Source of the DNA: a virus
Strand: one strand, 5' to 3'
DNA length: 10,108 nucleotides
UHGV virus genome: UHGV-0351028
The notes beneath the pieces were generated by a model, which made no database searches, had not been told where the DNA came from, and saw nothing but the letters and a program-made list of their open reading frames with translations. The position numbers were made by a program, and so were the translations under genes. Positions 6,903 through 9,152 of the stretch are shown piece after piece. Each line of letters opens with the position of its first letter. Position 1 is the first letter of the stretch.

Positions 6903-6924
6903 CGCTTCACTCGAGGCGTTTTTC
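6903..6924 (+). terminator. Second intrinsic terminator-like hairpin upstream of cIII
   Basis: CGCTTC-ACTC-GAGGCG stem (one G-U pair) followed by TTTTT. Confidence 0.5.
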
Positions 6925-6949
6925 GTTATGTATAAATAAGGAGCACACC

Positions 6950-7090
6950 ATGCAATATGCCATTGCAGGGTGGCCTGTTGCTGGCTGCCCTTCCGAATCT
7001 TTACTTGAACGAATCACACGTAAATTACGTGATGGATGGAAACGCCTTATCGACATACTTAATCAGCCAGGAGTTCCCAAAAATGGATAA
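6950..7090 (+). CDS. cIII: CIII (protease inhibitor stabilising CII), 46 aa, shorter than lambda CIII
   Basis: MQYAIAGWPVAGCPSESLLERITRKLRDGWKRLIDILNQPGVPKNG matches lambda CIII as recalled up to a stop that lambda lacks. SD AAGGAG lies 6 nt upstream. The 80-aa track ORF from 6848 is an upstream extension with no SD. Confidence 0.85.
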   Translation: MQYAIAGWPVAGCPSESLLERITRKLRDGWKRLIDILNQPGVPKNG

Positions 7091-7196
7091 AACACTTATG
7101 GCTATCCAGACTAAATTCACTATCGCCACTTTTATTGGCGATGAAAAGATGTTTCGTGAAGCCGTAGAAGCCTACAGAAAATGGAGGTCAAAATGA
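7083..7196 (+). CDS. kil: Kil-like protein, 37 aa with a divergent C-terminus
   Basis: MDKTLMAIQTKFTIATFIGDEKMFREAVEAYRKW... matches the lambda Kil N-terminus as recalled, then diverges. Overlaps the cIII end. Confidence 0.7.
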   Translation: MDKTLMAIQTKFTIATFIGDEKMFREAVEAYRKWRSK

Positions 7197-7381
7197 TTCC
7201 GGTAGAACTGGCGAAAACTCCAGAGTTAAGTCGATTAAAAAGAGAATATCACATTGCTGAGGCTCGTTACTGGCGTAAAGCGGGAGATAAATCAAAGAAA
7301 CAACTTTGTTTATGGCAGGCGCAAAGAGAGCGCATGAATGAGCGCGAATTTCTTTCCTGCCCATCCGAATTACCATTCTGA
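7193..7381 (+). CDS. Hypothetical protein (62 aa)
   Basis: ATG at 7193 with SD GGAGG 5 nt upstream; ATGA overlap with the kil stop. Basic, helical-looking product. Confidence 0.6.
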   Translation: MIPVELAKTPELSRLKREYHIAEARYWRKAGDKSKKQLCLWQAQRERMNEREFLSCPSELPF

Positions 7382-7389
7382 GGCAAATT

Positions 7390-8070
7390 ATGGGAACTGC
7401 GACATTAATACTCGGTGAATCTGGCACCGGAAAATCAACCAGCATGAGAAATATCAACCCAGAGGAAGCAATACTTATAAAACCAATAGGCAAGCCGCTA
7501 CCATTTAAATCAAAAGACTGGCTTGCATGGGATGCCAGAGCAAAAAAAGGAACCGTAGTTACCACTGACAAATGGGACGTAATAGTTGCTGTAATTAAGC
7601 GTGCTCACGAATACGGAAAAAGAATCGTTATTGTTGATGACTTCCAGTATGTGATGAGCAATGAGTTTATGCGCCGCTCAGAAGAAAAATCGTTTGATAA
7701 ATTTACTGAGATAGGCCGCCACGCATGGGAGGTGATTAAGGCTGCACAGGATGCACCTGATGACCTGAGAGTCTATTTTCTTGCACACACCGAAGAAACC
7801 CCTATGGGGCGTGTGAAAATGAAGACTATCGGCAAAATGCTGGACGAGAAAATCACTGTCGAAGGCATGTTTACTATAGTTCTTCGCACCCTTACCCGCG
7901 ATGACCAGTTCTTTTTCACCACGAAAAACAACGGTGCAGACACTGTAAAATCCCCAATGGGAATGTTTGATTCTAATGAGATTGATAACGATCTCTCTTT
8001 CGTCGATGCCACTGTTTGTGATTACTACGGCATCAATAATGTTCATCAAATTAAGGAAAACGCCGCATGA
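7390..8070 (+). CDS. Sak4-like (AAA_24/RecA-core) phage ATPase
   Basis: 226-aa ORF with Walker A GESGTGKST at residues 9-17 and Walker B RIVIVDD. Size and neighbourhood are typical of phage Sak4-type recombination ATPases. Confidence 0.75.
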   Translation: MGTATLILGESGTGKSTSMRNINPEEAILIKPIGKPLPFKSKDWLAWDARAKKGTVVTTDKWDVIVAVIKRAHEYGKRIVIVDDFQYVMSNEFMRRSEEKSFDKFTEIGRHAWEVIKAAQDAPDDLRVYFLAHTEETPMGRVKMKTIGKMLDEKITVEGMFTIVLRTLTRDDQFFFTTKNNGADTVKSPMGMFDSNEIDNDLSFVDATVCDYYGINNVHQIKENAA

Positions 8071-8654
8071 GCAACGTGATTTTTACTTATAACGAAGAAG
8101 CAGCACTGACCGCAGGGCAAGGTGGTTTTATTAACGAAACTGGTGCTCATATCATTACCATTACTGAAGCAGAACTAAAGCAATCAGAAAAAGGAGCCAA
8201 ATTTATTGAGTTTTCTGGCGAATCTGACGACGGACGTAAAATCCAATATCTTAGCGTCTGTGTTCAGAAAAATGACGGAACGGAAAACAAATTTGGCGCA
8301 AATGTCGTTCACGCCATGATGGGGTGTGCCGGGATTGGACAATTAACGCAACATATGGTTTCCGCCAGTAAATTTGTTGCTCCTGAGTTTCATGGAAAGA
8401 AAATCGGGTTAGTGCTCCAGAAAGTATTAACCACAAACAAAAAGACTGGCGCAGACAACTACCAGATGGAAATACGCATCCCGTTTATTGCACAAACAGG
8501 TCAAACCCTTAAAGAAAAGGCAGAAGGCAAGCAACCAGAAACTATCGCCAACATGGTTGCCAATCTCAAAGATAAAGACAATCGCTCTAAAAACGTAAGC
8601 CAGAATCATGCAGATGATTATGGTTACAGCCAGAACGATTACCCTGCTTTCTGA
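8067..8654 (+). CDS. Putative ssDNA-binding protein (DUF669-like partner of Sak4)
   Basis: 195-aa ORF overlapping the ATPase stop by 4 bp. Acidic/aromatic C-terminal tail ending ...DDYGYSQNDYPAF resembles SSB-type tails. The Sak4-DUF669 pairing is a known phage module. Confidence 0.55.
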   Translation: MSNVIFTYNEEAALTAGQGGFINETGAHIITITEAELKQSEKGAKFIEFSGESDDGRKIQYLSVCVQKNDGTENKFGANVVHAMMGCAGIGQLTQHMVSASKFVAPEFHGKKIGLVLQKVLTTNKKTGADNYQMEIRIPFIAQTGQTLKEKAEGKQPETIANMVANLKDKDNRSKNVSQNHADDYGYSQNDYPAF

Positions 8655-8677
8655 TTACTGAAAATAAGGCTCCCATT

Positions 8678-8974
8678 ATGCCAGCGCCTCTGTATGGTGC
8701 GGATGACCCGCGCAATTGCTCCGGTAGCTCCAAGGCGGAGGTGCTGGAAAATATCAAAAACATTTTCGACACGTTTATCGATCTGCCACCAGAAACAAAA
8801 GCAGAACGGATGTACCGACGCGATATACAACTCGCGTTAAAAAATGAGAAGGACCGAACAAACGAAACATCAATCCGACCATTCCGCAAAGCCACATATA
8901 CCCACTTCCCTGAATATATCGACCCGCGCCTGCGTAATTACCGCTCACGCTATGGCGCTATCAGTAATGACTGA
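8678..8974 (+). CDS. Hypothetical protein (98 aa)
   Basis: Co-directional ORF in the early-left operon with no recognised motif. Confidence 0.6.
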
Positions 8975-8984
8975 GGAATTTACC

Positions 8985-9152
8985 ATGAGAGGACTTGCAT
9001 ACAATCCCGGCATTCTTCCGGCAGAAATGATTATTCGCCAACGCGTAAAGCCAATGCCATCGAGAGAGGAATTGCTTAAGAGAAATTCTATTCCATCAGT
9101 GAATCAAAACAAATATCTGAATGCGATGTGGCGCAAAGGAGGCAACCAGTGA
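8985..9152 (+). CDS. Hypothetical small protein (55 aa)
   Basis: ATG at 8985 with GAGG upstream. Its stop overlaps the GTG start of the next gene. The 102-aa track ORF from 8844 is an upstream extension. Confidence 0.5.

Follow-up and report, generated by a model that had tools for sequence, protein, structure and literature searches.

Do the cIII and kil genes of this lambdoid segment, both of which are shorter than those of lambda, still encode working proteins? The window, that is, the whole stretch of 10,108 nucleotides from virus genome UHGV-0351028 that was analysed, covers the immunity and early-left part of a lambdoid phage, read leftward. The following genes mark its layout.

3251-3964: lambda-type cI
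6014-6397: N-like gene
6526-6726: ral

The genes of interest here are in the order cIII (46 aa), kil (37 aa), hkaM, sak4, ssb and abc2, which is the gene order of phages HK620 and HK629. We have high confidence that the window is an HK620/HK629-type early-left lambdoid segment in which both short proteins are most likely active. The short cIII and kil are already known as a common allele pair at a known module boundary. When the entire window was compared with the phage collection by megablast, no record covered more than 41% of it; by this comparison, the window as a whole is its own mosaic. A promoter scan found no sigma-70-like promoter in 6700-7450. Rfam also gave a MicX match over 6701-6888; with 20 bits (gathering score 75) and E = 0.06, it was taken to be due to chance.

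The two genes overlap, and a single substitution relative to lambda affects both of them.

6937-6995, + strand: cIII translation-control RNA (Rfam Lambda_thermo, RF01804), full length
6950-7090, + strand: cIII, 46-aa product, from the ATG at 6950 to the stop TAA at 7088-7090
7083-7196, + strand: kil of the HK620/HK629 type, 37 aa ending in RSK, from the ATG at 7083 to the TGA at 7194-7196
7089, + strand: C>A relative to lambda, changing cIII Ser47 (TCA) to a stop (TAA) and also kil Gln3 to Lys

The CIII product has 46 aa in the window compared with 54 aa in lambda (J02459), and it is identical throughout to residues 1-46 of lambda CIII (hereafter, CIII-46). The original prediction held that the TAA is a sense codon in lambda and that eight residues are missing; the alignment confirmed this, with TCA for Ser47 in lambda and C>A at 7089. 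By coordinate arithmetic, this base corresponds to lambda nt 33324, complement strand. The canonical 54-aa length with the C-terminal SNTYGYPD is therefore absent, codon 47 being TAA. The kil ATG at 7083 lies inside the 3′ end of cIII, as in lambda, and codon 3 of kil begins with base 7089, so that the substitution gives the Q3K change. Pfam Lambda_CIII (PF02061) was matched over its whole model (1-42 of 42) on residues 2-43, with an E value of 9e-31 and a score of 106.1 bits against a curated cut-off of 25.7; the lambda tail SNTYGYPD lies outside this model. The cIII leader and the thermoregulator are identical in the window and lambda, and Lambda_thermo was matched from 1 to 59 of 59 (88.5 bits against a gathering score of 50, E = 5e-22).

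Kil is 37 aa long in the window (MDKTLMAIQTKFTIATFIGDEKMFREAVEAYRKWRSK; hereafter, Kil-37) and 47 aa long in lambda. The first 34 residues are identical at 31 positions, the differences being Q3K, D29E and K32R; past residue 34, the window has RSK and a stop, and lambda has ILILKLRSSKSIH. The original prediction that Kil matches lambda for about 33 residues and then runs into an early stop was right about the divergence and the stop, although the match extends to residue 34. Pfam Lambda_Kil (PF06301) was also matched in full (model 1-31 of 31, E = 8e-22; 76.8 bits against a curated cut-off of 27.6). The AF2 model of Kil-37 consists of a helix at 3-18, a turn at G19-D20 and a helix at 21-36 (pLDDT 94.5), and this predicted helical hairpin agrees with the core described in PMC11762379. 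The polar RSK/RSSK motif near the Kil C-terminus, which is discussed in the same paper, is present as the final RSK.

The change in the Kil tail coincides with the end of the homology to lambda.

6890/6891, unstranded: point at which about 400 bp of lambda DNA, including ea10, is missing here (alignments and the split between blastn blocks)
7166-7185, + strand: last lambda-homologous stretch, more divergent (5 of 20 nt differ)
7181-7185, + strand: end of lambda homology and module junction, with ATG 7181-7183 aligned to the lambda gam start codon, plus GA
7193-7381, + strand: hkaM homologue, 62 aa (phrog_1723)

By blastn, the lambda homology forms two blocks, 6431-6890 with 96.5% identity and 6891-7185 with 96.3%. 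Apart from the ea10 indel, the DNA of lambda (J02459 33463-32816) is about 96% identical to that of the window between ral and codon 34 of kil; beyond that, lambda has gam-bet-exo where the window has hkaM-sak4-ssb-abc2. That Kil diverges where gam begins in lambda was correctly foreseen: the homology ends at 7185, with the ATG at 7181-7183 on the gam start. Up to 7165 there are six differences from lambda in 275 nt, and further mismatches are clustered at 7166, 7169, 7172, 7175 and 7177. The first four of these are third codon positions of the kil frame, and the five clustered changes in the kil end comprise three silent ones, D29E and K32R. This third-position pattern points to selection acting on the kil frame as far as W34.

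In lambda (J02459), kil shares its final 46 nt with gam. Thus a module swap rewrites and here shortens the Kil tail, and any phage with another module has another Kil tail. An HK620-type module takes the place of lambda gam-bet-exo, with the swap point exactly on the start codon of the first module gene, and the RSK-stop tail is encoded by the hkaM ribosome-binding site together with its start codon. The hkaM Shine-Dalgarno sequence GGAGG at 7183-7187 is followed by 5 nt and the ATG at 7193, and this ATG overlaps the kil TGA as ATGA; the stretch TGG AGG TCA AAA TGA accordingly encodes the end of the Kil tail and contains the GGAGG-N5-ATG of hkaM. The 16-mer ATGGAGGTCAAAATGA (7181-7196) was invariant in 30 of 30 sampled Kil-37 loci, even at positions that are synonymous for kil, and the flanking codons varied. 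As RSK is encoded by the hkaM Shine-Dalgarno sequence and start codon, its conservation alone is not evidence of Kil function.

The original prediction placed the shortening of both genes at this junction. This holds for kil but not for cIII, whose stop is a separable SNP 96 nt upstream of the junction. In an IMG/VR sample of 120 loci among the matches listed, 31 had TAA and 89 had TCA. TAA mostly occurred together with Kil-37, hkaM and sak4 among these matches, and 27 of the 30 Kil-37 sequences listed combined K3 with an RSK tail. There were exceptions among the listed matches in both directions: at least three TAA loci had the long Kil and gam, and at least three TCA loci had Kil-37 and hkaM. 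Because such recombinants exist both ways, the cIII stop is not a product of the junction. On these allele combinations, it is a separate SNP in the cIII/kil overlap, in strong but breakable linkage with the module.

The closest named phages carry the same arrangement. Window 6757-9133 is colinear and ungapped with HK620 (NC_002730 4002-6378; 95.2% identical over 2377 nt) and likewise with HK629 (NC_019711; 95.2%). The genes of HK620 follow in the same order, namely cIII (p15), kil (p14), hkaM (p13), sak4/hkaL (p12), ssb/hkaK (p11) and abc2/hkaJ (p10), and both phages have the TAA in cIII, Kil-37 and the ATGA overlap of kil and hkaM. Compared with HK620, the amino acid identities were 45/46 for CIII, 36/37 for Kil, 61/62 for HkaM, 225/226 for Sak4, 191/195 for SSB and 66/98 for Abc2. 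HK629 Kil is also identical to the window Kil at 36 of 37 residues, and its Rec module is alike. Farther upstream the phages differ: the homology to HK620 starts at 6757, and the window has a lambda-type ral where HK620 has hkaP/hkaQ. The ea10 DNA is absent from the window, HK620 and HK629 but present in lambda and in the Stx2a-converting phage LC616032.

Since HK620 and HK629 are colinear with the window straight across the junction, the breakpoint exists relative to lambda only, and the predicted mosaic breakpoint stands to that extent. The junction itself is, by this comparison, old and common to the whole lineage. The original prediction had also allowed that these lengths might be normal for the lineage and its lambda lengths wrong; the short lengths are indeed the norm in the HK620/HK629 lineage, whereas the lambda lengths that it gave are correct.

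In the GenBank record of HK620, cIII is already flagged as shorter than similar proteins owing to an internal stop codon. A literature search for discussion of this stop gave nothing useful, and the support is the GenBank note. The HK629 RefSeq record (8229-8468) gives kil as a 79-aa ORF that extends back through cIII, and no cIII is annotated. The cIII sequence with TAA is nevertheless present in HK629, so the contrast with the window is one of annotation, not of sequence.

The 6890/6891 junction, where the ea10 segment is missing, sits between two terminator-like hairpins. In the HK620 annotation, tL2A and tL2B lie upstream of cIII.

6863-6880, + strand: terminator-like hairpin, by position HK620 tL2A (terminator scan)
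6901-6920, + strand: terminator-like hairpin, by position HK620 tL2B (terminator scan)

Downstream of hkaM, the remaining genes of the recombination module are as follows.

7390-8070, + strand: sak4 (hkaL), core-only RecA-like single-strand annealing protein (phrog_2872, E = 4e-108; Pfam AAA_24)
8067-8654, + strand: cognate SSB (hkaK) (phrog_743, E = 1e-66)
8678-8974, + strand: abc2 anti-RecBCD gene, divergent allele (Pfam Anti-RecBCD_p2, E = 3e-37)

The order hkaM-sak4-ssb-abc2 directly 3′ of kil was found by PHROG, Pfam and the colinearity with HK620. It agrees with the expectation of a hypothetical gene followed by a Sak4-type module, given the 62-aa ORF at 7193-7381 and the Sak4-type ATPase at 7390-8070. 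The HK620 recombination module has been defined and experimentally characterised (PMC5928155): Sak4 is a RecA-like annealing protein of the core-only kind, HkaK serves as its cognate SSB, RecBCD is modified by Abc2, and HkaM is an orphan. A scan of CIII, Kil, HkaM, Sak4 and SSB against NCBIfam returned no matches; the NCBI names of these proteins must therefore come from another rule. In the abc2 region, 200 nt (8657-8857) hold 64 of the 113 mismatches to HK620. It appears that a different abc2 allele was patched into a module that is otherwise about 98% identical.

Both short proteins are widespread. Proteins identical to the 46-aa CIII and to the 37-aa Kil are each present on at least 1000 public contigs, and the exact 62-aa HkaM homologue occurs on 783. 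The NCBI names of the first two are "protease FtsH-inhibitory lysogeny factor CIII" and "host cell division inhibitory peptide Kil". Among 5426 complete E. coli genomes, 1532 match 6940-7400, and in 226 the match extends over the whole cIII-kil-hkaM junction; RefSeq calls cIII and kil intact in E. coli genomes with the whole junction. This kil is present in 1427 E. coli genomes. A 48-mer over the SNP with TAA was found exactly in 202 records and with one or two mismatches in 1230. In the phage collection, 68 of the 233 records with this kil carry the junction, and many of them are Stx2a-converting phages; phage LC616032 combines TAA, Kil-37 and ea10. The shortening is not new, given the HK620 GenBank note and the NCBI intact-gene names. 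A sequencing or assembly error as the source of the cIII stop or the early kil stop was rejected outright, the allele being present in thousands of independent assemblies. HK620, HK629 and Stx2a-converting phages share the identical sequence, as do at least 1000 contigs and complete genomes numbering in the hundreds.

E. coli CE10 (NC_017646) is 100% identical over 6940-7400 with different upstream DNA, and its identical cIII-kil-hkaM-sak4 segment (CE10 7445-8658) is preceded by an IS3-family element and by tail genes that are truncated. To judge from these neighbours, the CE10 prophage copy is rearranged or degraded.

The original prediction asked whether the shortened proteins are functional, and this can now largely be answered. 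For CIII, older work cited in PMC1838920 is reported to show that residues 14-37, an amphipathic helix, are essential and sufficient for activity. This region, R32 included, is intact in CIII-46 and identical to that of lambda. In the AF2 model of CIII-46, residues 16-38 form a helix that is followed by coil; the eight lost residues would thus lengthen a disordered tail. CIII-46 would act through the intact helix as a competitive inhibitor of FtsH, stabilising CII, and would be expressed under the intact lambda-type translation-control RNA.

For Kil, lambda residues 1-36 still blocked division (Naha, Cameron and Margolin 2025, PMC11762379). In the same study, lambda Kil without its C-terminal 11 residues was about 10-fold less efficient at Z-ring removal, and the N-terminal five residues and the C-terminal tail were jointly required for lambda Kil activity. 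Because of the roughly 10-fold effect of the C-terminal deletion, a quantitative difference is possible for Kil-37. The HK629 peptide, Kil′, tested with a His tag and without five N-terminal residues, blocked division, disrupted Z rings and needed ZipA (PMC11762379). The Kil of the window differs from that of HK629 at residue 28 alone (V in the window, I in HK629). By analogy with the HK629 peptide, we infer that Kil-37 is a helical hairpin that inhibits the assembly of FtsZ rings in a ZipA-dependent manner and would disrupt such rings in the same way.

Polymorphism is consistent with retained function. In codons 1-46 of cIII, the 27 TAA-allele copies among the matches listed had 10 synonymous and four non-synonymous variable sites (pN/pS = 0.12, binomial P = 2e-4), in a small and redundant IMG/VR sample in which RNA-structure constraint could partly account for the counts. 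The readable TAA-allele copies among these matches had no extra stop or frameshift in cIII. In codons 1-34 of kil, the TAA haplotypes among the matches listed had nine synonymous and six non-synonymous variable sites (pN/pS = 0.16, P = 5e-4), with the same reservations. As read from these site counts, the pattern shows that the cIII TAA haplotypes are under purifying selection. Very probably, the short CIII and Kil have both retained their function.

If the TAA were instead an inactivating nonsense mutation, cIII would be dead or weakened yet tolerated, and the short Kil would be a crippled remnant of the swap. Such an interpretation could draw on the loss of 8 of 54 CIII residues, on the missing cIII annotation in the HK629 RefSeq record and on the roughly 10-fold loss of efficiency when lambda Kil lacks its C-terminal 11 residues (PMC11762379). 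However, the missing CIII residues fall outside the Pfam model and outside the 14-37 region (PMC1838920), and the predicted coil past residue 38 means that the lost tail would extend an unstructured end. Inactivation also fits poorly with the intact regulatory RNA of cIII, with the strong synonymous excess in the TAA haplotypes and with the readable copies among the matches listed, which show no further disruption. In addition, HK629 Kil′ is active (PMC11762379), and the TAA allele is carried by viable temperate phages, namely HK620, HK629 and Stx2a-converting phages. We consider inactivation highly improbable.

Base 7089 lies in the cIII/kil overlap and alters both products, which raises the question of which product was the target. 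The C>A change might have been selected for its effect on kil, through Q3K or through tighter translational coupling, with the shortening of CIII as a neutral by-product. In the coupling version, the distance from the kil ATG to the cIII stop matters, which the change reduces from 29 nt to 5 nt. The Q3K version could appeal to the 27 of 30 Kil-37 sequences among the matches listed that join K3 to an RSK tail, and to the joint requirement for the N-terminal five residues and the C-terminal tail in lambda Kil (PMC11762379). However, the crossed combinations also exist: Q3 occurs with RSK and K3 with a long tail, at least three times each among the matches listed, and these recombinants in both directions imply that the K3-RSK pairing is not obligatory. 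Selection on kil seems rather unlikely as the cause, and it would be compatible with, not opposed to, the activity of both short proteins. A related idea is that C>A at 7089, which takes away the disordered C-terminal octapeptide of CIII and brings the cIII stop to within 5 nt of the kil ATG, acts as a tuning switch, either for the turnover of CIII by FtsH or for cIII-kil coupling. This is a doubtful suggestion; if true, it would shift the lysogenisation frequency or the Kil dosage in HK620-type phages, including Stx2a-converting ones.

With two active short proteins as the favoured reading, cIII and kil of this type should be annotated as intact genes, not as pseudogenes, and HK620-type Sak4 module is the label that the recombination genes should carry. 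Beyond correct annotation, the locus is of little importance. It does provide a clean textbook case of a lambdoid module boundary exactly on a start codon, and it illustrates how a module swap combined with overlapping genes forces a change in the C-terminus of the neighbouring protein.

Several other features of the window deserve mention. Downstream of the lambda-type cI, two overlapping ORFs of 159 aa (Pfam DUF6932) and 310 aa (4114-5522, + strand) occupy the position of lambda rexA/rexB. They match the A and B subunits of the PADLOC candidate defence system PDC-M63 (E = 2e-41 and 8e-45). By homology and position, this pair probably represents defence cargo that the prophage carries in the rex slot. 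The N gene (6014-6397) encodes 127 aa and is not lambda-type, and its match to HK620 N is limited to 6332-6395 (87.5%). In another frame, a 38-aa ORF (6331-6447, + strand) ends in VTCVGRQKIKLGSKPLI, resembling the C-terminus of lambda N (ITCSGRQKIKGKSIPLI); it may have been left behind by an older N allele or by a frameshift. On the opposite strand, a 164-aa ORF (882-1376, - strand) encodes a NUMOD4 + HNH_3 endonuclease. Its neighbours are a replication O-like gene (1484-2344) on one side and a weak Toprim-like ORF (70-897) on the other, and it has the appearance of a stand-alone homing endonuclease within the replication module.
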